64,000 bases of DNA. Source: Rhizophagus irregularis (Eukaryota). Each line of letters begins with the position of its first letter. Position 1 is the first letter of the stretch. Position numbers and translations under genes: made by a program. Positions 21,967 to 62,443 of this stretch are shown here, piece by piece. The stretch covers positions 2,418,001 to 2,482,000 of the forward strand of contig NC_089434.1 of assembly GCF_026210795.1 (NCBI RefSeq), given 5' to 3'. A model generated the notes under the pieces. The model worked only from the letters and a program-made list of their open reading frames with translations, did not search any database and was not told the DNA's origin.

Positions 21967-23023
21967 ATTAAATATATAATCCTTCATTATTCTTATTATC
22001 AGAAAAAACAATTTCAGTATTAGATTTGTTAGAAACTTTAATGGAAGATGATTTCTTAGACTTCTCAGGTATCTTGGATTTCTTTTTACTTGGTTGATGA
22101 TTTTTTTTACTACTCTCATTATCAGAAAAAACAAATCCAGTAGGTTTGTTCCTGAAAGTTTTAATAAATAATGATAATAATGTATTTTGAAGTTTAATGC
22201 TCGATTCTGATATCTTTAATATCTGCTCTTTACTGCTCTCATCATCAAATAGTGTTCTGCACGAATCAAATTTCTTTTCTGAAATTTGATTTAATTCAAT
22301 TCAAACTTGATTCAGACTTAATTCGACCTTCTAAAAATTATTATCTCAGGATCTAGTGATCCAAATTTGATGATCTTTTTTTTTATCAATAGGTTTCATT
22401 GCCCTGATCAAAATAAAAGATTGTCAAAATTAGACCATTAGATCAAAGTTATTCGCAAAATACATTTTTATTATTTATGAGTAATTAAGATTACATCATG
22501 TTATAAATCAATTTGTGCAGAACACTATTATCAGAAGAAATAAATCTGGTGGATTTATTGAAAACTTTAATAAATAATGATGATGATGTATCCTGAAATT
22601 TAGCGCTTGATTCTGATACCTTTGATGTTTACTCTTTTTTACCACTGTTACCCACGTCTGCTACTCATAGATAAACACAATTTCATTATAACATTATTTC
22701 ACTTTATTACGCTTAGTTTAGATTTTAATGCACTGGTTAAAAACTAATATATTGGGTAGCAGATATGTATCAAATATATACCTAATATGTGTAGTATTAA
22801 TGCTGAAAATTGGGTACCCGATATGTGTAAGATATATGTAAATATATATATCATATATATATCGGGTACCAATATGTATATGATATGTAAATGATATGTA
22901 GACGATATATATATTTACACATATCTTACACATATCAGGTACCTGATTTTCAGCATTAATACTACACATATCAGGTACATATCTGATACATATCTGCTAT
23001 CCGATATATTAGTTTTTGACCAG

Positions 23024-24286
23024 TAGTGATGATCATCGTACTTTCTCCCCCGTTGGGTTCTGCCCATTTTTTCCCATGAAGTTATGGATGAAAAATATGA
23101 GGATTTTTTGCCTTGAGTGATAGTAAAAGGACTTTTCGACGTTATATGAAGTTATTACCGAGGTCTTTAGTTTCGCCCGAACTCCTTACGGCTTATATTG
23201 AGTTATGACCGTTATCATGAGTCTTGGAGTTACCAATAATACTGTAAGATGGCAGTTCCATACGAACGTTCCCCTGGGCTTTCTGAAAGGTTGAAAAGTA
23301 GTGCGTCTTGGTTCCTACGCCTTTAAAGTCTAACTGGCCAAGTGGTTCGCAGGCCGGACCGGTATTTTTGGAAGGAGAAACCTCGACCAACGTATTTCTT
23401 GCTAGTTGATGTTGTTAACTGAGGAGTTAGTCTTCTAAAATAAGGAGATGGAGTTGAGGTGTATGTTTGGTGTTTTTCTTTCAGGTTTTTCTCATTGCAC
23501 TTCGAGTTTTCCTGAGGTTTATGTCTTTATTTTTTGCTTTTTGTTTTTCTTGGTCGCTTTTTTCAGTGTAACCTTATTTTCTTTGGGGGATGGAGGGATA
23601 CTGGAAAATTTGATCGTCATGGTGGCTTGGTGTTACTAATTTTCAAAATCGATGATCATCCGGGTGATAAGGGGGGTGACAGGTTGGGTACCGCAGTTTT
23701 TGTAGTATGCCGATCAAGGTGGTCACATGATGGACTATCATTGGATTGACTTATCTAGGTAGATCTTAGGTCGATGGATCGTTCGCAATGAGGTGGGTGT
23801 CCTCCGTTTGAAATTGTTCGAAATGAGGTGGGTGTCCCTTCGGGGATTGCACGACACTAAAAAGTTCCCCATCGGCTGGACTGCATGACACTAAAGAGTT
23901 CCCGGAGGTCTATGTGAAATAGGTTTGTTATCCATAGTATGTAATCAAATAGGGGAAATTGAATTTTATGCGTTTCTGATAGTGCTAATGGTAGCTCGGA
24001 GGTTCTTTACCGATTCTAGGAGTGGGTACGACGCTGGATGGGTTACGTATAGCATAGTTGACTTTACCCATTTTGAGATATATTTGGGGGGAGTAGCCGT
24101 AGTTATTTATATAGAGAGGGTGAGGTTTTTAATCTTAGCTTTTCTTATATGTAATTTTGGAAGATTATTTGTTCTTTGTTTTTCTATTAGTTCTGCACTT
24201 GTTGCGGTGCTTTTTAGATCACTCTGTGTTTCTCTAAAGTCACTTCGGCATTAATTAATAAAATTCAAGCTCAAGCTATGTTTACC
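23024..24286 (+). mobile_element. Element A: 1.26-kb non-coding retroposed sequence with a LINE-like 3' end, first unit of the array
   Basis: Flanked by target 14-mers (23010-23023, 24287-24300); TAGCATAGTTG...ATATAT.GGGGG near 24050 resembles the LINE 3' UTR at 32245; ends TTTACC versus LINE TTTGCC. Confidence 0.6.
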
Positions 24287-24435
24287 TAGTTTTTGATTAG
24301 TAGTAGTAACTCTCTCCTGAATTTTTCAAAAATGAAAATTTCCGATGAAAATAATTTTTTATTATTTTTAAAAAATAATACAAGCTACTAATAAAATTTT
24401 ATATTTTATATATTTTCAACTCAAAGCCCTCTACT

Positions 24436-26562
24436 ATGTCTGGTAACTATGCCAAGAGAGGCCGTGAAAGTCATAACCCTAATAGTAGGAAAGCTTCCCA
24501 TCAAGAACGAAAAAATAATAATAACTCCGATAATTCAAGCTCCGATGGTGAAAACACTGTCCAGCAGAAACGTAATCGTACGATTACCGAAAATTCTATG
24601 GATGAAGACTACATTGCCGATAACCAGATGGCTGACGTTGGAGTAGATGGACCTTCCTTTTCTCCTCAACAAAATATCTCTGACGAAAATACTTTGACCT
24701 CCTCCCCAAAAAAATCTGCTGCGCCAACTGCGCCCAGTCACGTCGCGTCTTCTGGAAATGTGGACGCGTCCAGCGCGCATGCCGCAAAGGAGACTTGCAA
24801 CAACTCCCTAACGTGTCGCCTGATATGGATTCCAATGGTGCTCCAGATGGCGATCATACTTCCGATCCAGTGGTGACCCTCGCCATAACCAAAGATGATT
24901 TTCAGGCTGCGGCTGCGCTGAATGCTGCCCCTGAATCTCTTAAAAACTTCCCTACCAATAAAGCTCTTATTGAGGCTGTTAACAACCTTTTTTTAGAAAC
25001 ATACGAGTCATACACTGAAAAAGCGCGTATGACTGGTTCTGGCGAAGCCAAACGCCTCGTTATTCACTTCCATACCGCTGAAGCACGCGATTTGTGCGTT
25101 GGTTCCACTCATTCGAGCTTCCCCTGACTTGACCTTTCACGCATACGATCCTCGCCAACTCCGATCTAATGAAGATCTCAGGGCCATCCAAGTTACCGAT
25201 ATCCTTTTCTTCATTAAAAAGGATAACCTAATGGCTTATTTCAAAAAATTTGGAAACATCACCTCTTGCCGCCTCTTTTCCAGGCCTAATGCCAAAGTCC
25301 AGCAAGCTTGTATCGTTTATGATCACGCCAATTCGATTGCTCACTTTACCGACCAATGGGCTGTATACTGCTTCTCCACCTGTTTCAGAATCACTCCATG
25401 TTTCTATACTGTAGATCAAAAGGCTGCGCGTCATCAATACGTTGCCACTCTCACTCAACTTCCCCCCAATGTTAAGGATATCAACTTGGCTCCTCTTACG
25501 CGTAACCTTGGCGCCAAAGCTGTCAATGTGCCACTCTCCTTAAATTCTTACAAACCCAAAAGATGGGCCTACGTCACTTTCAATTCCCAAGAGACCTTGG
25601 ATGCTGCTATGGAACAAACTGTCAGCTTCCAAGGCAAGGTGCTTTCCTAGTCCTCCCCAGATAATACTAACAAACTTTGTCACAGATGTGGCAAATTAGG
25701 TTGCGACCCAAATTTTTGTCCACTCAAACAAACTAGAGGACGTAGCCGTACTCGTGACCCTGTGGCAAAACTCAAAGAGTGGTTTAATGTCAATCAACCT
25801 CCTCGCCGCTCCAATTCTAATGCTGCTAATACACGTTCTCGCTCCTGATCACGCTCAAAATCCAAAGACCGATCTGCTTCTACTTCCAGACGTGATAATA
25901 ACAATTCTTATAACCATAATAATAATGCTAATAATCATAACAAACCCAATCCCAATACTTCCCAACGTGCCCGGCATAATAGCAAAGAACGCTCGGTCTC
26001 CTTCTCTTCCTCCTCTCGTTCTACAGCACGTCCCTTGCCCCGACAAATTCCTAATTCTGCATTATCTCCTGATGATGCTAATAATATTTTAAACCTTTTA
26101 CGCGAACTGCAATGTGAAGTTGCTAACTTCCATAAACGCATTTCCGCTCTTGAACTTGCTGACCAACGGATGACTCGCATCGAATCACACCTTGGCCTTG
26201 ATCCGCTTCCTACACCTAATGAGCCCGATTTGGATCTCATGCAAGAAGATACCCCTGTATCCCATGTTCCGCTTAACATTCAGTCTTCCGCCAAATCTAC
26301 TTCGCCCTCCAGAAGTATTTTAACGTGACCTTCGCCTCCTACCACTATTGTTCCTAACACATCGCTTCCTTCTTCTCATCTTTCCCCAAATGCTCCTCCT
26401 TTTACCCCTGTTTCCTCCACGCAAGAAGAAATTAACGATCTCAAAAATAATAGAGTCGTTATTGAAAGTAAATTGGACCAACTTACTGGTCATATCAAAC
26501 AATTCATTAGCTCCATTGGTGGTGCTCCCTTAGATCAAGCTGATTCAGCTTCTTCTGTTTAA
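24436..26562 (+). pseudogene. LINE ORF1: RRM-type domains, zinc knuckle, RS-rich tract, coiled coil; frameshifts and stops
   Basis: FKKFGNITSCRL and RWAYVTFNSQE RRM-like motifs; CHRCGKLGCDPNFC near 25678; homologous segments in copies 2 and 3. Confidence 0.85.
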
Positions 26563-26610
26563 TTTTCTTCTTCAATTTAACTCCCTGACTGTTTATATCA
26601 TTGTGTTTTA

Positions 26611-29600
26611 ATGTCGGACAATAATTTTAATTTGGATACCTTTGTACGGAACCCTCCCAACCCTGATGATGTTACTGGATTTTCTTCACACGAATCGTTA
26701 TTTTCTTCCTCCAGTAGCACTTCTTTTATTCCCAATTCATTCAACATTTCTTCTTTTAATGTTAATGGTCTTAAAATGTACAGTCAAACTAAATTAGAAC
26801 AAATTTCTACTTTCTTCTCCTTAAAAAATATTTCTTTTGGTGGTATTGTTGATACTCATCTCCACCCTAAACAAATGAAGTTTTTATCCAAACGAATCTC
26901 TAATTATACTGTGTTCTCCTCTAATTTGGATATTTCCAAACAAATTTTATCTTCTGGTGGTGTTTCTCTTTTTATAGAAAACTCCTTTGCTTCACATGTA
27001 CAAGATTTTAAATCCCATTCTTCACGTTTGCTTTCTGTTGATTTATATTTTAAAGGCAACGTTAAATTGCGCATATTTGTTATCTATATTCCCCCTGCTG
27101 AAAGTGTTTTGCGCTCTGACACTATTGATTTGCTTATTCAACAAATTACCCTTACTAAACAAGCTGGTTTTAACCATGCTATCTGCGGCGATTTTAATAT
27201 GCATTTAGACAAATATTATCCTATATATTTTAATCAACCCCAAGTTGCTTCAAAACATATTCACCGATTATTTTCTCATCTCCTTTCTCACAGATATAAA
27301 AACTATACTCCTATTAATCTTTCCAACTCTTTAGGTACCTTTCATCGCAATGACCAAATTACTCGCGTTGATTATGTATAGTCCTGCCCTTTTCTCAAAG
27401 GATTTGCCCTTACTGCTTACATTTTTGATGCTCAAGACATTTGCACATCTGATCATAACCCTGTCATCACATATTATGACATGTCTTTACTTTTTGCCTC
27501 TACCAAATTGGCTCGCACTCGACAACTTAAGCGCCAGACCCGCCACGTCTTCAAATTTGATTCTGTAACTGATATTTAATGGACGGAATTCACTGCCAAA
27601 GCTGATGTTTTATGTGACGTCTCACCTTCAACTTTTTTCTCCTGGCATATCAATCAAATGTGCGAATATCTTCAATCACGAATCCTTAAAGCTGCCAACG
27701 CTACTTTACCTCTTCTACTGTTAGCAACAATTATACTCCTAAGGTCCCTAAAGATCTGGAAATTTTAACTCAACATTATCAGTTTTTAAATCGCCTAATG
27801 CATTCGATACGTCTATTGCGCAAATATCCTTTAACTTATTCTGTTGTTCTTGAACATAAGTGGTCTATACATTTGTATAGACTTCAAAACATTCTTCAAT
27901 TATACAAGAAAGTTTTTACTTTCATTCCTACTCTGCCCTTTTCTTTTTCATCATGTCGACAAGACAATTTCAAGTCACTTCTTGATGATTTATCTAATAT
28001 TTCAAAATCCTTACGGGATTTTCACTTACTTCAAGAAAAAGAATTCCAAGACTCCTCCATCTGTGCTCACTTGGACGATAGGAATAACAACTTTGAGACT
28101 GACCTTTCTTCCTTTATCGATTCAGCGCTCTCTCGCACCCGTCGCCATATCACTTTGGACCGTGTCTTTATCGACCACCCTACTCAACCCCGGTTATTAA
28201 CTGATCCTAAGGATGTAGATGATGCTATTGTTAACCATTTCCAAAACTTTGTACCTATAAAGTCCACTCCTCCTGTATCCATCGATACATTACCTGATAG
28301 ATGGTCTTCTGCCTACCAACCTATGGATGATGTGTCCTTCTCCATCTATAATTTTTTAATGAATCCCCCTACCCTCGACGAATGGTTATCCACCGTCTCT
28401 TCCACTCCTAACGGTAAAGCCTCTGGTCCTTCCATGATTACCTATGAAATGCTTAAACATCTTGGAACCTGTACCTCGGCTCTGCTCCTCATATTAATTC
28501 AAGCATGCCTCTCCAAAGCTGATATTCCCGACTTATGGCGACAAGCAATGGTTTTTCCCATTCCCAAATCTCACGAATGGAAATGTCAATTAAAAAATAC
28601 TCATCCTATTACCTTGCTTGAAGTGATTAGGAAATCTCTTGTCAAACTTTTTTATAATCGCCTATCTACTATTATGGCTTCACATGATGTTCTAAGAGGT
28701 GGTAACTTCGCTGGTCTTCCAGGTGGTTCTTGCCGTGACCCTATTATTACTCTGGAATCTATTATCCATGATGCTGATATCAACAAAAACCCACTTTGGA
28801 TTCTTTCCCAAGATATCTCTAAAGCTTTCGACTCAGTCGATCTGACTATGTTACGTTTTGCTCTAGAACGTATACGTCTTCCAGCCTCCGCTGTTAAATT
28901 TATCCTTTCTCTTTTCACAAAACGCACTAATCACGTTTTCACTGCTCATGGATCTACGCCTGCTTATAGGGTTCGCATTGGTATTGACCAAGGCGAAGTT
29001 ATCTCTCCTCTTTTATGGGTCATTTATATTGATCCCTTACTTACTGTGTTGAAGAATGAAATGAAGGACCCTTACGTTCTTTCCTCACCGTCTTTAATTG
29101 ATTCTCCAAATCCTTCTTCTGATTTGAAGATTAATAATTTAGTATTCATGGATGACTCTACTCTTATTTCCTCGTTGAAAGCTGGCATGGAACTTATGTT
29201 ATCCATCACTGAAGAATTTTACCAAATCAATAACACTTCTGCCAATCATAACAAATATGTGTTAATTACTAATTCGTTGCTTTTGACTTCGAATTCCGCT
29301 TTATTCCTATTACTTTTAATTTGGATTTATCCTCTTTAAATAGTGTGCCTTTCATTACCATTACCCCAATTTCCATGACAACTTCTTTTCATTTTTTAGG
29401 TGTCTGGTTTAACATTAAGAGCTCCCATGATTTTGTCAAAAAGCAACTCAAACGCGAATGCTGCTCCTTTGCTGCGACTATTTGATCCGCGAAGCTCTCT
29501 CCCAAACAAGTCGTGTATTTACATAATGCTGTTCTTATACCAAAACTTGAATACCAGATGCAAGTTACCCACTTGTCCGAATCTGACTGCCACCTAATAA

Positions 29601-32221
29601 CGAGAAGTATACGATCTGTTGTAAAGCACAAAGCAAATTTTTCTCGTTCTTTACCCAATCCTATTCTATTTTTATCTCAAGCTTTGGGCTTGATTAATTT
29701 GTTTGCTCATCAACATCAATGTCATATTACTAATTTATTTTTAATGGCTAATTCTTCTTTTTCTTTTATTCAATCTCTTTTTATTTATAGATTGTGTTTA
29801 ATTCAATATAATTTTTTGATCCCTATTTCTCCTCTTTTAATTAAGGACTAGTCTATATGGTCTCTTTATTTTCCTTTAAGAAAGATTATATCGCATGCAC
29901 TATTGCTCTCTTATCTTCTACTCTTTTTCGTTTGCTTCATACTCAACTTTCGAAGCTTCCGAACTTATCTCTGTTAGATGGATGCGTTCTATTATTTGAA
30001 TGCATGACGCCTAAAGCCTTTAAAGCTTATTTCTCCATTCTGCGAAAACGAAAACTGTTTTATTTATTTCAGCTTGTTACCCCTAAGGAACTCATTTAAT
30101 TTCCTGGAAGGCTTACTATGACAGTTTGGTTGGACGACGTGGCCCTGGCCGTATCCCTTATTGGTACATGGATATCCAACAATCTACCACTGTTCCTAAT
30201 TCCAATAATCGTTTGCTGGATAAATTTATTACTATGCATACGAATGACTCTTTATTTTATGAATTAAAACCTTGTTAACCTCTCCTCCTACTACTAAAAA
30301 TTGGATTGTCACGTTGGACGAATTTGGTTCTCCCTTCTTTGGCAAACAACTTTTGGTCCAAGCAAGTCGTGGTACTTGTTCTATTGTCCACTGGATTTCT
30401 CCTGATTGTAACTCTTCGCCTGGTGATCTCATTAGACTTTCTCCTTGCCCTGGCTGTGCTGCTCATTCTCCTTTACCTCCTTCCAAAAAACGGAATGCTG
30501 ACTTAACCCTTTGTACACCTACGGTCTCTCTACAGCACTCACTTATTTTGCCTACTAATAATGAGCGGATTAGACGTAACACTTCTGAAGTGACTTCTCC
30601 TCTTACTTGGGCTGATATTGAAGACGTTGTCCGTCTTTATTATAGTAGATTGGATTTTGATTCTGATCCCCTTTCTGCAGATACCGTTGTAGCTTCTGTT
30701 CCTCCTGTTACTATTGAATCCTCGGCCGCCGCTGTTTTTGCAAACTCTCTGTTGGTCATTTCATGTTATATCTTTTTCACTGATAGATCTCTAGTTAGTT
30801 TAGGTATTCCTGATGTTTCTATGGGCTGGTCTTGGATGCAAATTGTTTCAGATGCAGGCTTTCCTAACTCCATTGCCACTTATGCTTACGGCCTTATTCG
30901 AAATAACCCTTCTTCCTCTCGAGCTGAAGCTGCTGCTATTTACGCAGTTTTAACTATCTCTCCTCACGACTCAGAAGTTACTATCTACACTGACTCGCAA
31001 ACTGCCATTGATGGCCTTCGAAGTTGCTCTTCCTTTGTCTACTCAAATAGTTGTCTGTACTATAAAACTACAAATTTTGAGCTTTGGGCTATTATTGAGC
31101 GAACCATCCTCTCCAAAAATTTGACTGTCCTTCCCATCAAAGTTAAAGCTCATTCTGGCAATTATTTAAACGACTTTGCTGACTCCTTGGCCAATACTGC
31201 TCATACTGCGTCATCTAGTATTTGGATTTCTGGAATGGACCTGGCCTTTGCTCATGATTTTGTCTTAATTTATGACAATGATGTTGTCTGCGAATCTAAT
31301 CCATGACACCTTCTCAAACAATATTATCAAACGCAGTTTATGCGGGATTTGTTAAACTTAACGCGGTTTCACTTTACTTCTTTATTATCATCTAATGTAG
31401 ATTATGTTATTGATTGGGACCTTACTTGGTTTGCTTTGAAATTCAAACCTTCTCATAACGCATCTTTCACGTATGAACATGCTTCACGACATCATACCTT
31501 CAAATTTAAACTCTTCTTGGATGATTTACCTACATTGGAAAAGCTTAAACGGACTCGACCAGACTTATACATGGACGAATTAACTTGTCATTCTTGTATC
31601 GACCGCATGGAGGACCTGATGCACCTTTTTATGTGCAAAAGACGTCGTTTACCTATGCAACAAATTCTTCAATCTTATCAAAATCATTTGATTTCCAAAA
31701 TTCTGGAAGCCGGTAAATTGGCTAACATTGATCCCACTCCATTTATTACTAAACTCACTTTTCTTTCATGCTGGTCCTTTTCTTCTACAAATTGGTCCTC
31801 CTATGCCCTGGTTCATGGTTGTTTACCCAAATTCTTTATTGACTTATTTGTCGATTTATCCATTCCAAGGCCATCTGCGATAAAGGTTATCGCTGCTATT
31901 CATAATAATTTTGTCCAAAAATTCAGAAGACGAATTTGGAATCCGCGTTTTTACGAACAAAGTAGATGGGAAAACGCGATGAATATTACCTATAAGTTGA
32001 AAACTACTCCGAAGCCATCTAACTTGCCATTGTCAATGTACATACCTTACTCATCTTTACCTCCTCCGACTCTACACGATTCACGTGACTCCGGAACTGA
32101 TTGGTTAAAGAACTCGATGAAATATGGTTTGCCTTGGTTTAATCACTTTTCGGGTTTTATGGGTCGTCTAACAGTGCTACTTAATAACAGCTTTTGCAGA
32201 ATGGAGTGTTGATTTTTATAG
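26611..32221 (+). pseudogene. LINE ORF2: APE endonuclease, reverse transcriptase, RNase H, C-terminal zinc finger; frameshifts and stops
   Basis: APE: SFNVNGL, GDFN, SDHNPV; RT: PITLLE, QDISKAFDSV, GIDQGEVISPLLW, FMDD; RNase H: SSRAE, YTDSQ, KVKAHSGN..ND.AD; C..C...HLFMC. Confidence 0.9.
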
Positions 32222-32504
32222 TGGGTGCGCTATTCGTTATTTTGTTAGCATAGTTGCTTCTACTTTAGTTGGAATATATCAAGGGGGAAGATCTGGGGAA
32301 ATTTAGTGTAATGTGATTTTTTTTTCTTAGATTAATTTTTTACTTTATTTTTTCTTAGGAGACTATATAGCTTTGTTTTTAGTTAGTTTTATTTTTATAT
32401 TTTTCTTTTTATAAATTGTAAATTGTAAAGTTCGAATAAATTTAATAAAGATAAAGGCTACTATGCCACGTTTGCCTAGTTTTTGACCAGTAGTTTTTGA
32501 CCAG

Positions 32505-33633
32505 TAACTCTCTCCTGAATTTTTCAAAAAAAGAAAATTCCGACGAAAAATATTTTTTATTATTTTTAAAAAATAATACAAACTACTAATAAATTTTATA
32601 TTCCCAACTCAAAGTCCTCTAATATGTCTGATAACTATGCCAAGAGAGGCTGTGGAAGTCATAACCCTAACAGTAGGAAAGCTTCCTGTCAAGAACGAAA
32701 AAATAATAATAACTCCGATAACTCAAGCTCTAATAGTGAAAACACTATCCAGCAAAAACGTACTCATACGCTTACCGATAACTCTATAGAAGAAGATTAC
32801 GTTGCTGATGACCAGACGGCTGACGTTGGAGTAGATGGTCTTTCCTCTTCTCCTCAACAAAATATCTCTGGCGAAAATACCTTTCCCTTCTTCCCGAAAA
32901 ATTCTGCTGCGCCAACTGCGCCCAGTCACGTCGCGTCTTCTGAAAATGTAGACGTGTCCATGCATACACCTTCAAACATAGACAAGCAACAAATCCCTAA
33001 CGCGTCACCTTATTTGGATACTATCAATGGTGCTCCATCTGGCGATCATACCCCAGATCCAGTGGTGACCCTCACCATGACTAGAGATAATTTTCAGGCT
33101 GCGGCTGTGCCAATTGCTGCCCCTGAATCCCTTAAAAATTCCCTACTAATAAGGCTCTCATTGAGGCTATCAATAATCTCTTTTTAGAAACTTATGAGTC
33201 ATACACTGGCAAAGTGCGTATGACTAGTTCTGGTGATGTCGAACGTCTCGTTATCCATTTCCATACTGCTGAAACACGCGATTTATGCATTAGTTCCACC
33301 CATTCTGAATTCCCTGACCTAATTTTCCATGCACATGACCCTCGTCAACTCCAATCTAATAAAGATCTCTGAGCTATCCAAGTTACCGATATTCCATTCT
33401 TCATTAAAAAGGACAACCTTATAGCCTATTTCAAGAAATTTGGAAACATTACCTCTTGCTGGCTTTTTTCCAGGCCTAATGCTAAAGTGCAGCAGGCTCG
33501 CATTGTATATGACAATACTGATTCAATTGCTCAATTTTCCGATCAATGGGCTGTATATTGTTTCTTCACCTGCCTCCGAATCACTCTATGCTTCTACACC
33601 GTGAATCAAAAAGCTGCGCACCATCAATACGTT
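32505..33633 (+). mobile_element. LINE copy 2, 5' portion (5' UTR and first half of ORF1)
   Basis: Collinear with 24307-25443; homology stops after CATCAATACGTT. Confidence 0.9.
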
Positions 33634-35510
33634 AATTCTCACGCCTTCATCTACAAAAGCAGAATGCTTTGCAATACTAACAGCTTTACTTGTCTATCTA
33701 ACAGTACAATCCATATCCACACAGATTCTCAAAATTGTATCAACACATTTCAACGAGTTAACAACGCTTTAACGTCAGACCAGAAAATTCTGAAACTTCC
33801 TAACCATCTCGCGTGGCATTGTATTAAACAACTAATCAATAAAAACCATTTAGAAGTCCATTTCAACAAAGTAAAGCTCACTCCAATAATTTTTATAATG
33901 ATCTAGCAGACGCCGAAGCAAAAAAAGACTTCGACGTCAGTTCTACCATTACTCATCAACCCTAAATTTATTGAAAATGTGATTCTGTTGCCCTTATGGG
34001 ATTCTATTGGCATCATTGATCGAGATACCCAAAAGTTCACTAAATCGATCACGGAAGCAAGAACTTTCGACTCCTTTACACACAACTCACCATTACAAGA
34101 TATGTTTGCTCATCATAATATCTCAGAAATTAATTGGCCACTCACTCAGTCCTGGATCAATTATAACAACGTTTGCAGCACTAATAAATCAAAAAAAGAC
34201 GCTTTCAAACTAAAATGCCTCAATCACATTTTACCGTGTGGAGAAATACTTACTTCACACTATCCATCGTTATATTTCAACATACAGACTCCCATCAAAT
34301 GTCCGTTCTGTCAGAATGAAACGATACTAACTCTCACTTAGGTTTCTGTTAACCCATTTTACCATCCCTTAACAACATCGTGAAAGAATTCAAAGACACT
34401 TTAAACGTCAGATTACTTTACACACTGACTCGAGGAGGATGACATATTTTGTATCCCAAAACCTCAACGCATCATATCTTTTCACGCCAATTACGAACGA
34501 CAAACACCCGATTTACTTACTCATGCACAATTTCGTTCCCCAAGAATTAGTAGATCTGATACAGAAATACACGAATAGTTACAAGATCATACGCAATTAG
34601 TGATGGAGACGATGCTAAAACTTCAATCAACATTATACACCATGATATGGCTCAAACATACGGAAGCTATGAAACAGTGGGAACTAGCGAAGTATCACTA
34701 CTGCTAAAAAAAATTCACTTCGGAAAAAGCACCTAACACTGGTAAAAAAATAGTCTATCCTACACATATTCTACACATATCTTACATATATCAAGTACTC
34801 AAAATGTAGAAAATCATACACAAATAATACACATATCATACACATATTGGGTACTTATATATATAGTATACCTATCAGGTACCTGATATATGTATGATAT
34901 ATATATTAGTACCTGATATGTGTATGATATGTGTATTATTTGTGTATGATTTTCTACATTTTGAGTACCCAATATGTGTAAGATATGTGTAGGATAAATC
35001 ATTTTTTTACCAGTGTAAGAAAAAAGAAAAAATCACGCACAAGGACACCTAAAAATGCCACTCCAAGTAGTGCGACCAACATACCCGTAAACCCTATAAA
35101 GATTTACAATAATTCACACAAATATGACGATAGACTCCGCATCAAACTGTACAATTATATACCACGATGGATCATCTTAATCACATCAAATTATCTCCAA
35201 TGCAGGTGGTTGGAACATTATGAATAGTTTAGATAGACAAACTTTTTATAGAGTTATATTTTTCTTTATTTTCTCATTTATATTATCGTATAGATTTTTT
35301 ACAACTTCTTTTAATCCTATTTTCTATCATGTTAGTGGGTAGCTCAGTTACGCCAAGGGTTCAAGGGTGAATAATAGGCGGAACGATTCCTCTTTGGTGA
35401 GGTTGGACTAACTCACAACGCTTAGTTTAGTTTCATTTTTGTAATTTGTTCTTCTAACATTTGCTTGTAATTCCGGTTTCTGTCTTCATGATAAAAATAG
35501 AAATAAAAAT
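33634..35510 (+). mobile_element. 5'-truncated LINE of a different family (RNase H, zinc finger, 3' UTR, A-rich tail)
   Basis: PSSTKAE, IHTDSQ and KVKAHS..NDLAD across frameshifts; LKCLNHILP...CPFC; ends ATAAAAATAGAAATAAAAAT; not alignable at DNA level with the array LINE. Confidence 0.75.
34737..35015. mobile_element. CACTG MITE (279 bp), intact sister of the 22731 element
   Basis: TAA|CACTGGTAAAAAAA...TTTTTTTACCAGTG|TAA; shared TACACATATC and GGTACC internal repeats; 3-bp TSD. Confidence 0.9.
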
Positions 35511-50428: not shown

Positions 50429-50924
50429 TAATTTATAAAAATGATTTATAATTGAGTTTTAAATTTAGTATTATCAATCGGACTTTGAACTTAAAAATTA
50501 AACAGTATTAACAAAAATTCTTGTGAATTTTTTAATAATTGTGATTTTATATCAGTGAGTTTTTGGGTAGTACATATTAGCAGATACTAGTATTGTTTGA
50601 TGCTTTAAAGTGTAGAAAAACTTACCCTATCACACGTCAAATAAATAAAAATTGGCTGATTTTAGCTATATTTGTCCGATTTGTGACTTTTTACAGCCGT
50701 ATTACCAATTCTTAACCACATTTTTCAGTTTTTTCACTATACAAAAAAATTGTATATACATTATGAAATATATATTTTTATAAAAAATTATATTGTAATA
50801 TTGAATTAAAATTTAAAAAATATTTTATTAAGCAATATTAAATAAAAAACTAATCTTAAATAATTAGAATATAAATTTACTTGTAATTCAATGTAATACG
50901 CACAATTATAAAAAATTAATAACT

Positions 50925-51772
50925 CCACAAATATTAACTGTGCCTTCATTAAAATAAATATTCAAGTAGATTCTAAGCTGCTGAACAATTTTTAATTAAT
51001 AAAAGAAGTCGATTTACTTTGGCTAAAGTGCTCAAAATACGCTCTGAAGTAACAAAATAGAAAAAATAAAATTCGTAAATAAGTACCGTTGTGAAAATCG
51101 TGAATAACTAATCAAGTATTAACTGTACCTTCGTAAAAATTAATATCCAAGTAGCTTTTGACCTGCTGAACAACTTTCAATTAATAAAAGAAGTCGATTT
51201 ACTTTGACTAAAGTGCTCAAAATACGCTCTGAATTGACAAAACGGAAAAAAATAAAATTCGTAAATGAGTACTATTGTGAAAATCGTGAATAACTCATCA
51301 AGTATTAACTGTACCTTCGTGAAAATTAATATTCAAGTAGATTTTGATATGCTAAACAACTTTCAATTAATATAAGAAGTTGGTTTACTTTGGATAAAGT
51401 GCTCAAAATACGCTCTGAAGTGACAAAATGAAAAAAATAAAATTTGTAAATGAGTACTGTTGTGAAAATTGTAAATAACTCATTAAGTATTAACTGTACC
51501 TTCGTGAAAATTAATATCCAAGTAGATTTTAACCTGCCGAACAACTTACAATTAATATAAGAAGTTGATTTACTTTGGCTAAAGATCTCAAAATACGCTC
51601 TGAAGGTAAAAAAATTTGTAACTTAATACTACTGTATAATATAAAAAATGTAAATAATTCCAAAAATATTAACTGTACTTTTATGATCTTAACAGTTTTA
51701 AACTTACTAAACTACTTTTAATTAAAAGAATAAGATTTACTTCAGCCAAAATGCTCAAACCATACTTTGAAA
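50925..51772. repeat. ~185-bp tandem repeat, about 4.5 copies
   Basis: G(TG/AT)CTCAAAATACGCTCTGAA at 51028, 51213, 51399 and 51584. Confidence 0.88.
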
Positions 51773-54371
51773 TATATGTAAAAAAAAATATAATATTTGT
51801 TTATATTTTAAATTATGAGTTATTTAATTTAAATGTATTTATATTTAAGAAAAAAAATATTTTAATTCTATTTTATAAAGTATTTAAAAAGTAATTTAGT
51901 AAAGTTTTTGAGGCAAAAAAATAATTATAACTGAAATAAAAAAAAAAATCTAAGTTAATAAATAAATATTAAATCGTAATATATAATCGCATGTTATATA
52001 TTAAAATTGAAAAATCCTATTACAAATAACCAAAAATTGGCAATTTCATGTTAAAAATCAGAAATATTATATTAAAATCAGAAATATTTATTAAAATCGA
52101 AAATATTATATTAAAATTGCCAAAAAATCAGACAGCCATATTAAAAAGGACAAAAATCTGATTTTTATTTATTTGACCTGTGTATATTTGTAGAAAATAC
52201 GTTATAAACGTATGAATTTTAATATACTGTAGAATAATATGTATACCGTATCCTTTATTTACAATATTTTTGTAAACCGTATACAAAATACTGATATACA
52301 GTAGAAATGATATACGTTATAGATGTATGAATTTAATATACCGTATCACACAGTATGTTTACCGTATACTTTATTGTATTTTTTACTAAGCACATTTTGC
52401 GAACAGTATACATTATACTAATATACCGTATGTAAAAATGCAAACTGTATCAAAAATACGTATATACAGTGTAAAAACCATATACATATTTTTTATAAGG
52501 CCGATATTCCGTTCTTTATCAAAAAAAACAACTTGATGGCCTACTTCAAGAAATTTGAAAACATTACCTCCTGCCGCCTCTTTTCTAAACCCAATGCTAA
52601 AGTTCAACAAACCCGCATTGTATATAACAATGCTGATTCAATTGCTCGGTTTACTGATCAATGGGCTGTATACTGTTTTTTCATCTGCCTCCGCATTACC
52701 CCATGTCATTATATCATAGAGCAAAAAGCTGCGCGTTATCAATACGTTGCCACTCTCACTTAACTTCCCCTAATGTTAAGGATATTAACCTTGCTCCTCT
52801 TACCCGAAATCTTGGCGCTAAAGCTGTCAATGTGCCGCTCTCCCTTAACTCTTATAAACCCAAAAGATGGGTTTATATCACCTTCAATTCCCAAGAAACC
52901 ATGGATGCTGCTATAGAACAAACTGTCAGCTTTCAAGGCAAGGTGCTTTCATGGTCCTCCCCCGACAATACTAATAAACTTTGCCACAGATGTGGTAAGT
53001 TAGACTGCGCTCCCAATTTTTGCCCACTCAAACAATCCAGAGGTCGCACTTGTACTCGTGATCTGGTGATCAAACTCAAGGAACGCTTCAATATTAACCA
53101 ACCTTGTCACTCTAGCTCTAATGCCAATACGCGCTCTCACTTCAGATCTCGCTCAAAATCCAGAGATCAATCAACCTCTATTTCGAGACGTGGCAATAAC
53201 ATTTCACAGAACAATAATAAAAATAATGTTAATAGTCAGGCTAATTCCAATCCCAATAACTCCCAACGTGCTCGACATAATAGTAAAGAACGCTCAGTCT
53301 CATTCTCCTCTTCTTCCCATTCTACAGCACGTCCATTACCTCGATAAACTCCTAATTCTGCATTATCTCCTGATGATGCTAATAACATTTTGAACCTTTT
53401 ACGTGAATTACAATGTGAAGTTGCTAACTTCCATAAGCGCATCTCCGCCCTGGAACTTGCTGACCAAAGGATGACTCGAATTGAATCTCACCTTGGTTTT
53501 GACCCGTTCCCTACAAATGACAACCCAGATTTGGATCTAATGCAAGAGGATGTTCCTATATCCCATGTCCCACTTAATATCCAGCCTTCAGCTAAATCCT
53601 CCTCACCTCCTAAAAGTATTTTAACGCGGTCTCAACTACCTTCAATTACCATTGCTTCTACTGCGCCGCACTCCTCTTCTCTTTCCCCTAATGCTCCTCT
53701 TTTCACTCCCACCTCCTCCACGCAAGATGAAATCAACGATCTCAAAAATAGTAGAGTCGTTATAGAAAGTAAATTGGACCAGCTTACTGGCCATATCAAA
53801 CAATTCATTAGCTCCATTGGTGGTGCTTTCTTAGAACAAGCTGATTCAGCTTCTTCTATTTAATTTTCTTCTTTTCGATTTATTTTTCTGACTGTTTTAT
53901 CATTGTGCTTTAATGTCGGACTTTAATTATGATACCTTTGTATGAAACCCTTCCAACCCGAATCTTGTTACTGAATTTTTTTTACATGAATCTTTATTTT
54001 CTTCTTCCAGTAACAATTCTCCTATCCCTAACTCTTTTAATATTTCCTCCTTTAATGTTAATGGCCTTAAAATGCATGGTCAAACTAAAATAGAACAACT
54101 TTCCACTTTCTTTTCCCTTAGACATATTTCTTTTGGTAGTATTGTTGATATTCATCTTCATCCCAAACAAATGAAGTTTTTATCCAAGCGTATTTCTAAT
54201 TATACTGTTTTTTCTTCAGACTTGGATACTTCTAAACAAATTCTTTCTTCTGGTGGTGTCTCTCTTTTTATTGATAATTCACTTGCTTGTCATGTACAAG
54301 ATTTTAAATCCCATTCTTCGCGTTTGCTCTCTGTTGATTTATATTTTAAAGGCAACGTGAAATTACGTATA

Positions 54372-56551
54372 CAGTCGCCACTGGTTATAACAAACCTGTT
54401 TGTACCGAAAACTTGTTATAGTGAACTAAGTTTTACAGAACCAATTTTTTTATAGTAAATTACATTGGATATAACGAAATCACATAATAAATTGCTATAT
54501 ACCACATCCGAACTCATTATAGCTAGCCCAAATATATTAGCTGCATATTTAGTATACTGAACTGTCACGTGACTTATATGGCTAATATAAAAGATAATCA
54601 TGTCACCATTACGTGTAAATACTTTTTCCAATTTCCGTTAGTCTGAATCGGATAAATTTCTTCAAAAGTTCCAATAATGCTGACCAAAAAAAAAGAGTTA
54701 GTCTTTCTGCTAAACAAAAGCGCGAAATCTGTGAAATGAAAGAGAAAGACCCAACACTCCAAAATGTAGAACTTGCGCAAAAATATAATGTTGGGAAGTC
54801 TACAATTACCAACATTTTAAGAGAAAGTGACCGTTGGCTTACAATTACAGAAAGCAAAGAGAATACTAAAAAATTTCGCAGACCAAAATGGCCACAACTG
54901 GAAGGTGCACTTGGTTTATGGGTTGACAACGCACTTAATACTAAACAAGATATTGATGGTAATATCTTAAAGGTAAAGGCAAGCTATTTTGCTGAACAGT
55001 TTTCAATAGAAGATTTTTATCATTCAGAGGGTTAGTTAGGTGGCTTTAAAAAATGGCATGGTTTGCGTCAATTTAAAAAGCAAGGTGAAGCTGAAAGTGC
55101 TCCTTCAGCTGAATCAATAGAAAGAAATCGTTTTGCTTTACAACAGCTCCTTGCACCTTACAACCCTGAAGATATTTGGAATGGTGATGAAACTGGCCTA
55201 TTCTGGAAGATGGAACCTTCTAGAGTTTTGGCACGTAATTCTCTATCAGGGCATAAAAAAGAGAAATCCCGTGTTACAATATTTTGTGCAACAAATGCAA
55301 CCAGCAGTGAGAAAATGACGCTAACATTTATTCACAAATACAAAACTTCTCGTGTTATGAAAAACATTAATTATAAAAACCTTCCAGTTTATTACTTTTG
55401 GAATAAAAAAGCATGGATGCAAGTTAGCATTTTTAATGAAGTTCTTCTTAAACTCAATGAAATAATGAGACAAAAAAGACGAAAAATAATTTTTTAATTG
55501 ATAATGCACCAGTACATCTTATTTTAGATGAAACTCGAGAAAAGTTGGATAGTATAGATGTGAAATTTCTTCCACCAAATACTACCACTAAACTTCAGCC
55601 TTGTGATGCGGAGATCATTCATTCATTTAAGTGTCATTACAAATGACTTTTCATTCAGAATAGGATTGATACATATGATGATGTGCAGGACGGTATTGTG
55701 GAAGAACTTGCAGATTATACCATTTATGATGCTTTACAGAATGCGGCTGAAGCATGGTCAACAGTATTTTCTCAAACAATTTCAAACTGTTAGAAGAAAA
55801 CAGGTATTCTTCCACCAAGTATTAACAAAACTGGAGAATTTCCTGATAATGATTCAGCATTTTCTGATGATAGGTATGCAAAATTATATAATATAATTTT
55901 TTTAAAATTAACATTAACTTCTATTTTTCTTAGTTTTGATATGGATATTGATGAACTTGAAGCGTTAATTTCCCAGCTTCCAAATAATGATCTTAATACG
56001 TATGAATACCTTCATGTTGAGGATGAGATGCCGAAAGGTGGGCTTACAGATTTTGAAATAGTTGATACTATACGAAATGCAGATAAGGAAGAGGAAGATA
56101 TGATGGATGAGACCGAATTTACACCTATATCGGAAAAAGTGAGTCCAACAGATGCAGAAAAGGCTATGAATAAAACTATAAAATTTTTGTATGAACAGAG
56201 ACCAGAATTTGGTGATGTAAATGAAGAGTTAAAGGTTTTAAGAAAATTACATAAAAAAGTAAAACTTTTAGTTGTAAATAATCTTAAACAGCTTGATCTT
56301 CATTACTTCCAATATAATAATAATGTTTAAATAGCTGGTTAATACTTATAGTCGTTAATAAAATAATATTGTAGTACATCGCGCATTTTATTAACTTTAA
56401 TTTAAATATAATGGTCATGTGCAGCTAAAACTATTGGATAAATTTATATACCGAACAGTTCGGTATATAACATAAATATTATATATCGAATTCGTTATAT
56501 ACTGAACCAAATCTCTTGGAACAGCTGGTTCGTTATATCCAGTGGCGACTG
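54372..56551 (+). mobile_element. pogo/Tigger-type (Tc1/mariner superfamily) transposon inserted in the LINE endonuclease region
   Basis: TA|CAGTCGCCACTGG...CCAGTGGCGACTG|TA; LINE sequence resumes across it. Confidence 0.95.
54677..56330 (+). pseudogene. pogo transposase (CENP-B-type HTH plus DDE_1), with frameshifts and stops; intron about 55873-55933
   Basis: LAQKYNVGKSTI, WNGDETGLFW, KAWM, DNAP.H, FLPPNTT.KLQPCD. Confidence 0.9.
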
Positions 56552-58321
56552 TATTTGTTATTTATATCCCCCTCCTGCTGAAAGTGTTTTGCGCTCTGAC
56601 ACTATTGATTTGCTCATTCAACAACTTCTTCTTACTAAACAAGCTGGTTTTTACCATGCTGTTTGTGGTGATTTTAATATGCATTTAGATAAATATTATC
56701 CTATCTATTTTAATCAACCCCAAATTGCTTCTCAACAAATTCACCGATTATTTTATCATCTCCTTTCTCATGGATATGAAGACTATACTCCTATTAATTC
56801 TTCCAGTTCCCTAGGCACCTTTCATCGTAATGATCAAATTACGCGTGTTAATTATGTATGGTCCTGCCCTCTTCTCAAAGGATTCGCTTTGACTGCATAC
56901 ATCTTTGATGCTCAAGACATTTGCACATCTGATCATAACCCTGTCATCACATATTATGATATGTCTTTACTTTTCACCTCCACCAAATTGGCTCACGCTC
57001 GACAACTTAAGCGCCAGACTTGCCGCATCTTCAAATTTGATTCTGTTACCGATTCTCAATGGACAGAATTCACTGACAATGCTGATGTTCTATGTGACGT
57101 CTTACCTTCAACCTTCTCGTCCTGGCATATCAATCAAATGTGCAAATATCTTCAATCACGAATCCTCAAAGCTGCCAATACAACTCTACCTTCTTCTACA
57201 GTTGGCAACAATTATACTCCTAAAATTCCTAAGGAACTGGAAACATTAACTCAACATTATCGGTTTTTAAATCGCCTAATGCATTCAATACGTCTATTAT
57301 GTAAATATCCTTTGACTTATTCTGCTGCTCATGAACATAAGTGGTCTATTCATTTAATTAGACTTCAAAATATTCTTCAATTATACAAGAAAGTGTTTGC
57401 TTTCATTCCCACTTTACCTTTGTCTCTTTTATCATGTCGACAAGATGATTTCAAATCACTCCTTGATGTATTATCCAATATTTTAAAATCCTTACGGGGA
57501 TATCATTTATTTCAAGAAAAAGAATTTCAAGACTCCTCTATCTGTGCTCGTTTGGATGATAGAAATAATAATTTCGAAACTGACCTTTCTTCTTTTATTG
57601 ATTCAGCACTCTCTCGCACTCGTCATCGAATTACTTTGAATCGTGTCTTTCTTGACCATCCTACTCGTCCTCAGCTACTTACTAATCCTAAAGACATAGA
57701 TGATGCTGTTGTTAACCATTTCCAAAACTTTGTGCCAATTAAATCCACTCCTCTTACCTCTCTCGATGTATTACCCGATAAATGGTCTTCGGCCTATCAA
57801 CCCATGGCTGATGTATTCTCCTCCATCTATGATTCTTTAATGAATCCCTTACCCTTGATGAATGGTTATCTACCGTATCTTCTACTCCTAATGGCAAAGC
57901 CCCTGGTCCTTCCATGATTACTTATGAAATACTCAAACATTTTGGACCTCGTACTTCGGATTTACTTTTAATTTTAATCAAATCCTGCCTTTTCAAAGCT
58001 GATATTCCCGACTTATGGTGACAAGCAATGGTCTTTCCCATCCCCAAACCTCACGAATGGAAATTTCAATTAAAAAATACTCGTCCTATCACCTTACTTG
58101 AAGTGATTAGAAAATCTCTCGTCAAACTTTTTTATAATCGTCTTTCTACTATTTTGGCATCGTACAATGTCTTAAAAGGTGGTAACTTCGCTGGTCTCCC
58201 TGGTGGTTCATGCCGCGACCCTATTATTACTCTGGAATTCATTATCCATAATGCCGATGTCAACAAAAATCTACTTTGGATACTTTCTTAAGACATATCC
58301 AAAACTTTCGACTCTGTCAAC

Positions 58322-58565
58322 TAAGATTGCTTGTCTAAACCTCTTCAAAATCCTATGATTAGTTTCATCAAAATTTTACTATAGATTTATTATAGTTTTG
58401 GCAGAGTTTTGGCAGTTTCGGCATTTATAATAAGTTTTGGCAGTTTCGCCTTTTTCCAAAGTTTCGCCAGTTTTTTAATATAACTTTAATATAGTTTCGG
58501 CAGAATTTCACTTTTCGGCAAAACGCCATTTTGCCTAAACCTCTAGGTTTCAGCAAGCAACCTTA
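58322..58565. mobile_element. hAT-type MITE, TAAGGTTGC family (244 bp), inserted in the LINE RT region
   Basis: TAAGATTGCTTG...GCAAGCAACCTTA; 8-bp TSD CTGTCAAC (58314-58321, 58566-58573). Confidence 0.9.
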
Positions 58566-61500
58566 CTGTCAACCTAACAATGTTACATTTCGCTCTCGAA
58601 CATATACGCCTTCCAGCTTCTGCTGTCAAGTTTATTCTTTCACTTTTTATGAAACGCACTAATAGCGTTTTCACTGCTTATGGATCTACTCCTGCCTATA
58701 GGGTTCGCATTGGTATTGACCAAGGCGAAGTTATTTCTCCTCTTTTATGGGTTATTTATATTGATCCTTTACTTACTGTATTGAAGAATGAAATGATGGA
58801 CCCTTATGTTCTTTCAGCACCCTCTTTAATTGCTTCACAAGGTTTTTCCCCTGATCTTCGTGTCAACAATTTAGTTTTTATGGATGACTCTACTCTCGTC
58901 TTCTCGTCAAAAGCTGGCATGGAATCTATGTTGTCTATTACAGAAGAATTTTATCAGATTAACAACACTTCTACTAATCACAACAAATATGTGTTAATTA
59001 CCAATTCATTGCCTTTATCCTCAAATTCTACTCTTTCCCTGTTACGTTTAATTTGGATTTATCCTCTTTAAATAGCATTCCTTTTATTACTATTACTTCA
59101 ATTTCTATGACAACTTCTTTTCGTTTTTTAGGTGTTTGGTTTAACATTAAAAGCTCACGTGATTTCGTCAAGAAATAACTCAAACACGAATATAATTCTT
59201 TTGCCGCAACCATCTGACCTGCAAAGCTTTCTGCCAAACAAGTTGTGTATTTACACAATGCTGTCCTTATTCCAAAACTTGAATATCGGATGTAAGTGAC
59301 TCACTTGTCTGAATCGGACTGTCACCTTATAACGAGAAGTATATGATCTGTTGTGAAACATAAAGCAAATTTTTCTCGTTCTCTTCCCAACCCTATTTTA
59401 TTTTTATTTCAAGTATTGGGCTTGATTAATTTGTTTGCTCATCAACGACAATGTCATATTACTAATTTATTTTTAATAGCTAATTCTTCCTTTTCTTTTA
59501 TTCAATCTCTTTTTATTTATAGATTGCGTTTAATTCAATATCATTTTTTGATTCCTATTTTTCTTTTTTTAATTAAAGACTGGTCTATATGGTCTTCTCT
59601 TTTTTCTTTTAAGAAAGATTATATCGCTTGCACTATCGCTCTCCTGAACTCTACCCTTTTCGTTTGCTTCATACTCAACTTTCGAAGCTTCTGAACTTAT
59701 CCCTGTTAGAAGAACGCGTTCCTCTATTTGAATGCATGACGCCAAAAGTCTTTAAAGCTTATTTGCCTATCCTGCGTAAATGACAATTGTTTTACTTATC
59801 CCAACTTGTTACTCCACAAGGCACCCATTTAATTTCTTGGAAAGCTTATTATGACAACTTGGTTGGAAGACGTAACCCTGGCCATACTCCTTATTGGTAC
59901 AGATATCCAACAATCTACCACTGTTCCTAACTCTAATAATCGTTTACTTGACGATTATATCACTATGCCCACAAATGACTCTTCATTTTATGAATTGGAA
60001 CCTTGTCTTTCCTCTCCTTTTACCACTAAAAATTGGATTGTCACGTTGGATGAATTCGGTTTTCCCGTCTTCGGTAAACAACTTTTGGTCCAAGCAGGCC
60101 GTGGCACTTACTCCATTGTCCATTGGATTTCCCCCAACTGTGAATCCTTGCCTGGCGATCTCATTAAACTTTCACCTTGCTCTGGTTGTGCTGCTCATAT
60201 CCCTTTACCTCCTTCTAAAAAACGGAATGCTGATTTAACTCTTTGTACACCAACGGTCTCTCTATAACATTCGCTCATTTTATCTACTACTAATGAATGA
60301 ATTAGAAGTAATACCTCTATAGTGACTTCCCCTTTTACTTGGACTGATATTGAAGATGGAGTCCGCCTCTATTATAGCAGATTGGACTTTGCTTCTGAAT
60401 TTTCTCCTGCAGATATTATTGCTGCTCTTGCTGCTGTTGAATCTTCAGCTGCTGCTATTTTTGCAAACTCCCCATTAGTTATTTCTGCAGAATCACGTTA
60501 TATCTTTTTTACTGATGGGTCCCTTATTAATTTAGGTACTCCTAATGTTTTTATGGGCTGGTCTTGGATGCAAATTGTTCCTGATGCTGGCTTCCCTAAC
60601 TCTATCGCTACTTACGTACATGGCATTATTCAGGATAATCCCTCTTCTTCTCGAGCCGAAGCTGCCGCTATTTACACAGTTTTAACCATTTTTCCCCGTG
60701 ACTCAGAAGTTACTATTTACACTGACTCGCAAACTGCCATCGATGGCCTTCGAGGTTGCTCTTCTTTTGTTTATTTGAATAGCCAACTTTATTACAAGAC
60801 TACAAACTTTAAGCTTTGGGCTATTATTGAACGAACCATTCTCTCCAAGAACTTGACTGTACTTATCGTTAAAGTTAAAGCTCACTCTGGCAATTATTTA
60901 AACGATTTACCGATTTCTTGGCCAATACTGCTCATACTGCCTCATCCAGCATTTTGATTTCTGATTTGGACCTTGCTTCTGCTCGCGACTTTGTCTTGAC
61001 TTATGATAATGACGTCATCTGCGAATCTAATCTGAGACACCTTCTCAAACAATACTATCAAACGCAGTTGATGCGTAATTTATTACAATTAACGCGATTT
61101 CACTTTACTTCTTTATTCTTAAGTAATATAGATTATCTTGTTGATTGGGACCTTACTTGGTTTGCTTTGAAATTCAAACCTTCTCATAACGCATCTTTCA
61201 CGTATGAACATGCTTCACGACATCATACCTTCAAATTTAAACTCTTCTTAGATGAATTACCCACTCTAGAAAAGCTTAAAAGAACTTGACCGGACTTATA
61301 CATGGACGAATTAACTTGTTATTCCTATATCGACCGCATGGAAGATTTGATGCACCTTTTTATGTGCAAAAAACGTCATTTACATATGCAACAAATCCTT
61401 CAATCTTATCAAAATCATTTGATTTCTAAACTTCAAGAAGCTGAAAAATTGGCAGATATTGATCCAACTCTGTTTATTACCAAACTTACTTCTCTTTCAT

Positions 61501-62443
61501 GCTGGTCCTTTTCTTCTACAAATTGGTCCTCCTATGCCCTTGTCCGTGGCTGTTTACCCAAACTTTTTATCAACTTATTCGTCGATTTATCTATTCCAAA
61601 AAATTCTGCGATGAAGGTTGTCGCTGCTAATCATAACAATTTTGTTCAGAAATTCAGAAGACGAATTTGGAATCTGCGTTCTTATGAGAAAAGTAGATGG
61701 GAAAATGTGATGAATATTACTTATAAGTTGAAAACTACTCTGAGGCCTTTTAATTTGCCAATGTCAACGTACATACCTTACTCATCTTTACCACCTTTGA
61801 CCCTACATGATTCACGTGACTCTGGAACCGATTGGTTGAAGAACTCGATGAAATATGATTTGCCTTGGTTTAATCACTTTTTGGGTTTTATGGGTCGTCT
61901 AATGGTGCTACTTAATAACAGCTTTTGCAGGATGGAGTGTCGATTTTTATAGTGAGCACGCTATTCGTTATTTTGTTAGCATAGTTGCTTCTACTTTGGT
62001 TGAAATATATCAAGGGGAAAGATCTGGAGAAATTTAGTGTAATGCGATTTTTCTTTTTTAGATTAATTTTTACTTTATTTTTTCTTAGGAGACTATATAG
62101 CTTTGTTTTTAGTTAGTTTTATTTTTATATTTTTCTTTTTATTTTTTGTAAATTGTAAAGCTCGAATAAATTTAATAAAGATAAAGGCTACTATGCCACG
62201 TTTGCCTAGTTTTTGACCAGTGATGATTCTTTAACTCTTTTACATTCTTAAATTTTAACTTTTAAACTTTGATAGTTTTTCTTGAGTTAATTAAACTTCA
62301 CATAATAATTTCTGTTTATTTTATTCTGGACTTGATATTTTTATAATTGAATTATTAATTATTAATCGTTTTTTACAGTAAAACCACAATGATAACTTTT
62401 TATTAATATTAATTCTTTATTTTTATTATAATTGAGCTCAGGC

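Follow-up and report, generated by a model that had tools for sequence, protein, structure and literature searches.

A head-to-tail LINE array in the right terminal inverted repeat of a Rhizophagus irregularis EnSpm-type MITE, with evidence for a preferred insertion site

The stretch of DNA analysed here, hereafter the window, comprises 64,000 nucleotides of contig NC_089434.1 from the fungus Rhizophagus irregularis, a symbiont of roots (positions 2,418,001 to 2,482,000 of the forward strand). Within it, three decayed copies of a long interspersed nuclear element (LINE) that bears an RNase H domain, together with one non-coding insert, are arranged head-to-tail in the right terminal inverted repeat (TIR) of an EnSpm-type MITE (miniature inverted-repeat transposable element). 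A site of 14–15 nt from the MITE end recurs at every junction of the array, and the same target adjoins both sides of the LINE at other loci. The LINE very probably prefers this site; its specificity is a preference rather than a strict rule, because at least 12 contigs end the LINE without the 15-mer. We put at roughly 65% the joint proposition that the LINE endonuclease is the main determinant of the site and that the array originated by repeated insertion. An earlier note on this DNA had proposed that the LINE seeks the TIR sequence, duplicates it and reinserts into the duplicate. That idea is largely right, being borne out by the junctions at other loci; the strictness of the specificity, recognition by the endonuclease, the retroelement nature of all four inserts and the immobilisation of the MITE are less well supported than the note had them.

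The array and its repeated site

The left boundary of the host MITE is formed by ATG (22728..22730, + strand), followed by CACTGGTTAAAAACTA from position 22731, and the matching right copy of this 3-bp target duplication lies on the same strand at 62223..62225. The MITE body (22731..23023, without assigned strand) starts with CAC and folds back on itself, with a left TIR at 22731–22746 and a right arm that extends up to the 14-mer described below. The arms constitute a 132-nt inverted repeat that is 90% complementary, and the fold has a z of −20.9. Termini of the form CAC..GTG with a 3-bp duplication are the pattern of non-autonomous EnSpm/CACTA elements (PMC12730594), and both features are present here, which fits an EnSpm-type MITE. 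The pattern is also seen in two related MITEs of the window, at 34737–35015 (TAA duplication) and 63308–63780 (ATA duplication). Plavaka was considered as the MITE family and ruled out by its termini, given as TGT..ACA or CATCA..TGATG (PMC12730594). An Rfam search returned only sub-threshold microRNA-like matches on the MITE hairpin and none in the non-coding insert. The left arm of the MITE carries the target site on the opposite strand at 22732–22746, with one change (A for G) and no insertion.

The 14-mer TAGTTTTTGACCAG is found in exact form at 23010, 32477, 32491, 46592 and 62207, and with two mismatches (CC>TT) at 24287. All five array junctions, numbered 0 to 4, carry it. Since a T lies directly 3' of every copy, the repeat unit is 14–15 nt long, with a register that is ambiguous by one base. 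When up to two mismatches are allowed, the window contains nine matches to the 15-mer, whereas 100 shuffles average 0.36 and not one of them reaches nine; three of the nine matches are away from the junctions and correspond to the MITE's own left end and the ends of two related MITEs. Junction 0 (23010..23024) is the 15-nt site in the right TIR of the MITE, followed by AG-TG-ATG-AT at 23025–23033. Junction 1 (24287..24306) consists of the CC>TT copy of the 14-mer plus TAG TAG, junction 2 (32477..32504) of two tandem 14-mers, and junction 3 (46592..46608) of the 14-mer plus TAG, and junction 4 (62207..62222) is the full 16-nt right TIR end of the MITE; all are read on the + strand. The extra bases in front of the LINE 5' ends (one TAG, two TAGs or a whole 14-mer) are pieces of the target. 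A 179-nt contig from public sequencing run X2 spans 62189–62367, from junction 4 into unique flank, with one difference. On re-checking the sequence, every coordinate in the earlier note was found to be correct, as was its statement that the 14-mer marks every junction, and the clean MITE end, CCAGTG followed by ATG, has its exact match solely at 62207–62225.

The LINE copies, designated B, C and D, belong to one family, with 14–16% pairwise divergence and different insertions. Copy B (24307..32476, + strand), characterized through Pfam, homologues and lesions, is of full length and broken. Its first open reading frame (ORF1, ~24436–26562) encodes an RRM identified by Pfam and a CCHC knuckle read from the translation, and its second (ORF2, ~26611–32212) encodes an apurinic/apyrimidinic-type endonuclease (APE), a reverse transcriptase (RT) and an RNase H, all identified by Pfam, as well as a C-terminal Cys/His motif seen in the translation. 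The copy ends in ...GTTTGCC with AATAAA upstream. Copy C (32505..46591, + strand) has both ends intact, with ~3.3 kb replaced by 33634–42845, and copy D (46609..62206, + strand) is of full length and contains insertions at 47488–52500, 54372–56551 and ~58319–58567. There is no poly(A) tail in any of the three, and self-comparison of the window revealed no long terminal repeats (LTRs). With an APE-RT ORF2, an RNA-binding ORF1, no LTRs and 5'-truncated copies, the array element is an APE-type non-LTR retrotransposon. Its best protein matches are R. irregularis gene models, with up to 93% identity, followed by those of R. clarus. The ORF2 of these relatives is 1873–1888 residues long and includes RNase H, and the apparently intact relative P0008 has 1873 residues. 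The APE motifs NVNG, GDFN and SDH are present in the intact relatives. In a comparison with solved LINE endonucleases the APE domain found no match, the best hit being exonuclease III with an E of 0.83.

The remaining member of the array, insert A (23024..24286, + strand), is a non-coding segment of 1.26 kb with a LINE-like 3' end, and was examined by protein, profile and tRNA searches. It contains no ORF, matches none of 420 proteins at E<0.001 nor the ORF2 C-terminal profile, and shows no DNA-level match to copies B–D. Its last 45 nt resemble those of copy B to a degree equalled by one of 1000 shuffles. An identity as a short interspersed element was rejected, no tRNA and no Rfam match being found in the insert, and so was an origin as an ORF2 remnant, for which a weak tail match (E ~0.005–0.05) was confirmed neither by the 420 proteins nor by the profile. 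Insert A may be a non-autonomous passenger, or else represent a distant relative's tail. Of the four same-orientation retroelements that had been read from the sequence, three are shown to be LINEs, and the fourth, insert A, is at most a candidate retroelement, with no ORF or protein match. Junction 0 reads CCAG-TAG-TGATGAT where junction 4 reads CCAG-TGATGAT; junction 0 is in this way a MITE end plus ATG to which three bases have been added, so that the MITE on the left may be almost complete.

Junctions at other loci

Contigs of public sequencing runs were aligned to junction 3 (runs X2 and X3, from two studies; 12 of 26 loose ends listed) and to junction 4 (four runs; 24 matches listed, 453 further). 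Either X2 or X3 could be related to the source of the window. Contig depth was not taken as copy number, and low depth to the right of junction 4 (X1, X15) is no evidence of absence. The list of matched pieces for junction 3, which favours long matches, was left out of the on-target count.

Among the matches listed, the LINE end is followed by the 15-mer and then by divergent flank in at least eight contigs of X2 and at least seven of X3. The flank consensus past the 15-mer starts with G, and agreement is low (0.49 in X2, 0.47 in X3), as expected if each of these ends a MITE (CCAGTG) at a different locus. Altogether, 15 of the 27 3' flanks among the matches listed pass through the 15-mer at the same position. 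On the 5' side, a MITE arm that differs from the window's right arm stands directly before the 14-mer and the LINE start in at least three X2 contigs, and at least five X2 contigs lack the three extra bases before the LINE start. A head-to-tail junction with TGG in place of TAG is seen in at least one X3 contig.

A second source of junctions is provided by gene models of strain DAOM 181602. Of 190 relatives collected, five read through the last 45 nt of the LINE, representing two distinct junctions. In all five, what follows is WFLTS, as encoded by the TGG variant of the 15-mer, and after it a 5'-truncated copy. One junction enters mid-RT; the other, after five unexplained residues, enters the C-terminal region of another copy. 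Neither occurs in the window. Six other gene models step back along the element without showing a junction and were excluded from the count. A tail-to-truncated junction with an intervening target copy is described as the signature of a double insertion (PMC5932611). The LINE 3'-end pattern was absent from the viral and metagenome contigs scanned, and alignment of the C-terminal protein gave no confirmed locus among 551 candidate stretches.

Sequence-specific LINEs have the same target at other loci on both sides of the element, and this is what is observed here, in the form of a preference. Two further observations concern the family at large. A recurrent off-target flank after the LINE 3' end in runs X1 and X2 contains ATAAGGACTGATGA, which is absent from the window; it may represent a second target or one duplicated locus. 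Several members of a subfamily at 78% identity lie on the same contigs under closely spaced accession numbers, a hint of clustering in another strain, with isoforms being possible.

Site choice and growth of the array

The sequence suggests the following course of events, modelled on standard target-primed reverse transcription. The APE domain would make a bottom-strand nick at the site's left edge, and the RT would copy the RNA from a defined 3' end, the copies being without poly(A). The top strand would be cut ~15 nt further on, after CCAGT and one base inside the MITE end, leaving G and ATG outside. The site would be duplicated in this way, and each duplicate would become a new target, as has been described for R1 and other tandem elements (PMC5932611). 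The additional TAG units and the doubled 14-mer could stem from transcription beginning within the upstream target of the donor, from slippage or from aborted insertions. The duplication produced by insert A at junction 0 may have been longer and have taken in the MITE end. In its fullest form, to which we give slightly less than even odds, the proposal is that a Proto1-like LINE outside the Tx1 and R1 groups has independently evolved an APE that recognises a 15-base EnSpm MITE site; that across the Rhizophagus genome the MITE family acts as a landing pad that renews itself; that a non-coding passenger is carried along into the site; and that the outer TIR is made perfect again by a cut placed one base inside the end.

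Several observations weigh against the course of events set out above. The off-target contigs (X2 1+4+4, X3 3) exit the LINE end within 0–2 nt into other sequence. At junction 4, three runs each have at least three contigs that diverge at 62207–62208, and no on-target loose end was found there among the matches listed. Runs X2 and X3 probably share loci, since two of the pieces listed agree in length and span. Only where TAG is changed to TGG can the gene-model junctions be seen, and introns may be hidden in them. Junctions 0 and 4 are both followed by GATGAT, a 6-nt match with a chance of ~0.0003–0.0009 that misfits a fixed 15-nt duplication. APE motif II, which is usually ETH with Glu rather than Asp, is DTH or DTR in relatives P0008, P0026, P0034, P0100 and P0095. 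A perfect 16-nt outer MITE end with its ATG duplication is still in place at 62207–62225, which weakens the suggestion that the array immobilised the MITE; such an effect is plausible, since the array separates the outer end from its arm. A stop codon and a set of amino-acid changes shared between copies are taken up below.

The site could instead be chosen by RNA–DNA pairing, in which a read-through 15-mer tail on the LINE RNA pairs with the nicked MITE end and the endonuclease is weakly specific. This would suit the lack of a poly(A) tail in every copy, the derivation of the 5' extras from the target, and the presence of the TGG variant after LINE tails both at the two DAOM junctions and in X3; moreover, one off-target group of contigs shares a recurrent flank with an agreement of 0.84, as if flanks were inherited. 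However, the contigs in which the LINE end lacks the 15-mer argue that the 15-mer is not an obligate part of the element, and a nick at or near the site would still be required. We regard this alternative as unlikely.

A further alternative concerns only how the array grew and leaves the site preference untouched: a single MITE insertion could have been expanded by unequal crossing-over or tandem duplication, so that the copies are not separate insertions. Copies B, C and D share a stop at residue 960 (CGA>TGA), where 40 of 42 relatives have Arg and two have Cys, with no gap; the chance of such a triple shared stop, estimated from per-copy decay at 44 Arg CpG sites, is ~0.04–0.1. Across 1098 shared codons there are, relative to P0008, 231 private amino-acid changes, 19 three-way changes, 20 common to C and D, 6 to B and C and 5 to B and D, and the excess in C and D, which also cluster in the tree with a support of 0.87, fits common descent and would favour expansion by duplication. 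On the other hand, over ORF2 residues 1380–1840 the three copies are mutually 84% identical versus 87–90% to their nearest database copies, so that each has closer kin in the database than in the array. The 5' extras also differ between junctions, insert A is a different sequence, and followers at other loci are 5'-truncated. On balance, separate insertions of B, C and D are favoured and duplication as the source of the array is improbable, common descent of all three or of C and D being possible.

An assembly artefact, with repeats collapsed or mis-joined, is scarcely credible as the source of the array: no contig among the matches listed spans the array, but the copies are 14–16% apart and carry different insertions, the X2 contig covers junction 4 into unique flank, and head-to-tail junctions recur in X2 and X3 contigs. 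Equally hard to maintain is a chance nest, with abundant MITEs, no real preference and a LINE that cuts at any TA; the off-target contigs do start with T in 11 of 12 listed and with TA in 7 of 12, partly by construction of the loose-end position, yet a single 15-mer, at the same position each time, is found in 15 of 27 listed 3' flanks and in both gene-model junctions.

Neighbouring elements, clade and known systems

The copies have themselves received other elements. The interior of copy C (33634–42845) contains a distant LINE and a sister MITE, as well as an unknown gene and a hAT element. The LINE (33634–35490) is 5'-truncated, belongs to the same broad clade (profile E 2.5e-15) and is without a terminal 14-mer; the sister MITE at 34737–35015 sits within it. 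The hAT element (39578–42580) encodes zf-BED, DUF659 and a dimerisation domain and has an 11-bp TIR and an 8-bp duplication, GTACACAC; ends related to it are also found at ~13630–14451. In copy D, a Tc1/pogo-like element (54372–56551; CENP-B_N, DDE_1) with a TA duplication lies inside the APE region, and a 5-kb AT-rich insertion (47488–52500) starts with CAC, has matching inverted ends of which the right lacks a few bases, and includes 92-bp and 185-bp tandem arrays. Broken genes at 35500–39560 (− strand) and 15323–17337 (+ strand) are related, with ~35% identity and no Pfam match, and possibly represent an unclassified transposase; both carry a copy of a 300-bp MITE (copies at 8900–9200, 17465–17761 and 38856–39154). 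Host genes to the left of the array include an ORF with a BRCA2 repeat (1819–2907) and a SPRY-domain ORF (6643–7350).

Regarding the clade of the array LINE, P0008 scores 59–62 bits against human L1 ORF2p and 54–62 against the best three R2 entries; an L1-type control gave 176–177 versus 120 bits and an I-type control 87 versus 55. The nearest distant relatives are long metagenome ORF2s, and 13 of 20 distant relatives scanned have APE, RT and RNase H, all at E<0.001. An RT tree was calculated with FastTree (48 sequences, 373 columns, local supports) from references that include no named Tx1L, Proto1, R1 or Tad1 sequence and in which one of six I-type sequences is named. The 27 family-side RTs form a group of their own (local support 0.997) beside 15 L1-type and apart from the six I-type sequences, and a smaller tree with fewer references agrees. 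The family group is sister to the L1-type sequences and, in this tree without a named Tx1L, is not nested among them. Tx1 ORF2 has ~1300 residues and is without RNase H, unlike the ORF2 of 1873–1888 residues with RNase H in this family. The LINE is thus predicted to lie probably outside the Tx1 clade.

Proto1 also has a tree position sister to the L1 type. RNase H has been reported for the I group, plant L1, Proto1 and Dualen (PMC4640811), and Proto1 is listed for R. irregularis (PMC11075540, supplement). The Proto1 clade has RNase H in common with the array LINE, in which the APE–RT–RNase H arrangement of ORF2 that is expected of this clade is found, so that the family may tentatively be called Proto1-like, in a comparison that holds no named Proto1 reference; the protein searches for relatives turned up no named Proto1 sequence. 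In the portions of the Proto1 literature available to us no target-specific family is described, and the words 'target' and 'tandem' are absent from the accessible text of PMC11075540 on R. irregularis. No earlier description of a TIR-targeting LINE in Glomeromycota was found in a literature that covered few subscription journals and no Repbase.

Among the target-specific transposons reported, most fall into early-branched, Tx1 or R1 non-LTR groups (PMC4640811). If confirmed, a family with a site preference in another APE lineage would represent a further origin of specificity, would provide a new candidate for a 15-nt-specific integrase, and would give, in a fungus, a further example of one transposon living off another. 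Clusters of LINEs in the repeat-rich genome of R. irregularis would find an explanation in it as well. The specificity is directly testable because apparently intact relatives such as P0008 exist, and related subfamilies at 45–78% identity allow target choice to be compared.

Among site-restricted or self-nesting non-LTR elements, a likeness is found in FoTeR and MoTeR, Cnl1 and the Chlorella element Zepp. Their targets are telomeres or the elements themselves, and a restriction-like endonuclease is involved. FoTeRs are located at chromosome ends (PMC12857005). The Drosophila R1 arrays and transposable element dimers are likewise head-to-tail with a target copy between members and 5'-truncated followers (PMC5932611); R1, of the I group, differs in that its target is the 28S rDNA and the duplication in its array is 33 nt, versus a MITE end and 14–15 nt here. 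Another precedent, named in the earlier note, is Xenopus Tx1L (and Tx2L) with Tx1D, where a LINE of the APE type likewise goes into a fixed site of a non-autonomous DNA transposon (PMC1950540, PMC6719617). The comparison holds in that the two systems work alike, and probably does not extend to common membership of the Tx1 clade, in view of the RT grouping and the RNase H. In contrast to Tx1L, ORF2 here has ~1870 residues with RNase H and an RT apart from L1-type sequences, the terminal repeat itself holds the site, and the preference is not complete; endonuclease specificity is proven for Tx1L and here predicted from sequence. The mechanism by which an insertion regenerates its own target is already known. 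What differs is the carrier, probably another LINE lineage, and the target, a terminal inverted repeat, in a system that works like Tx1L/Tx1D and the R1 arrays.

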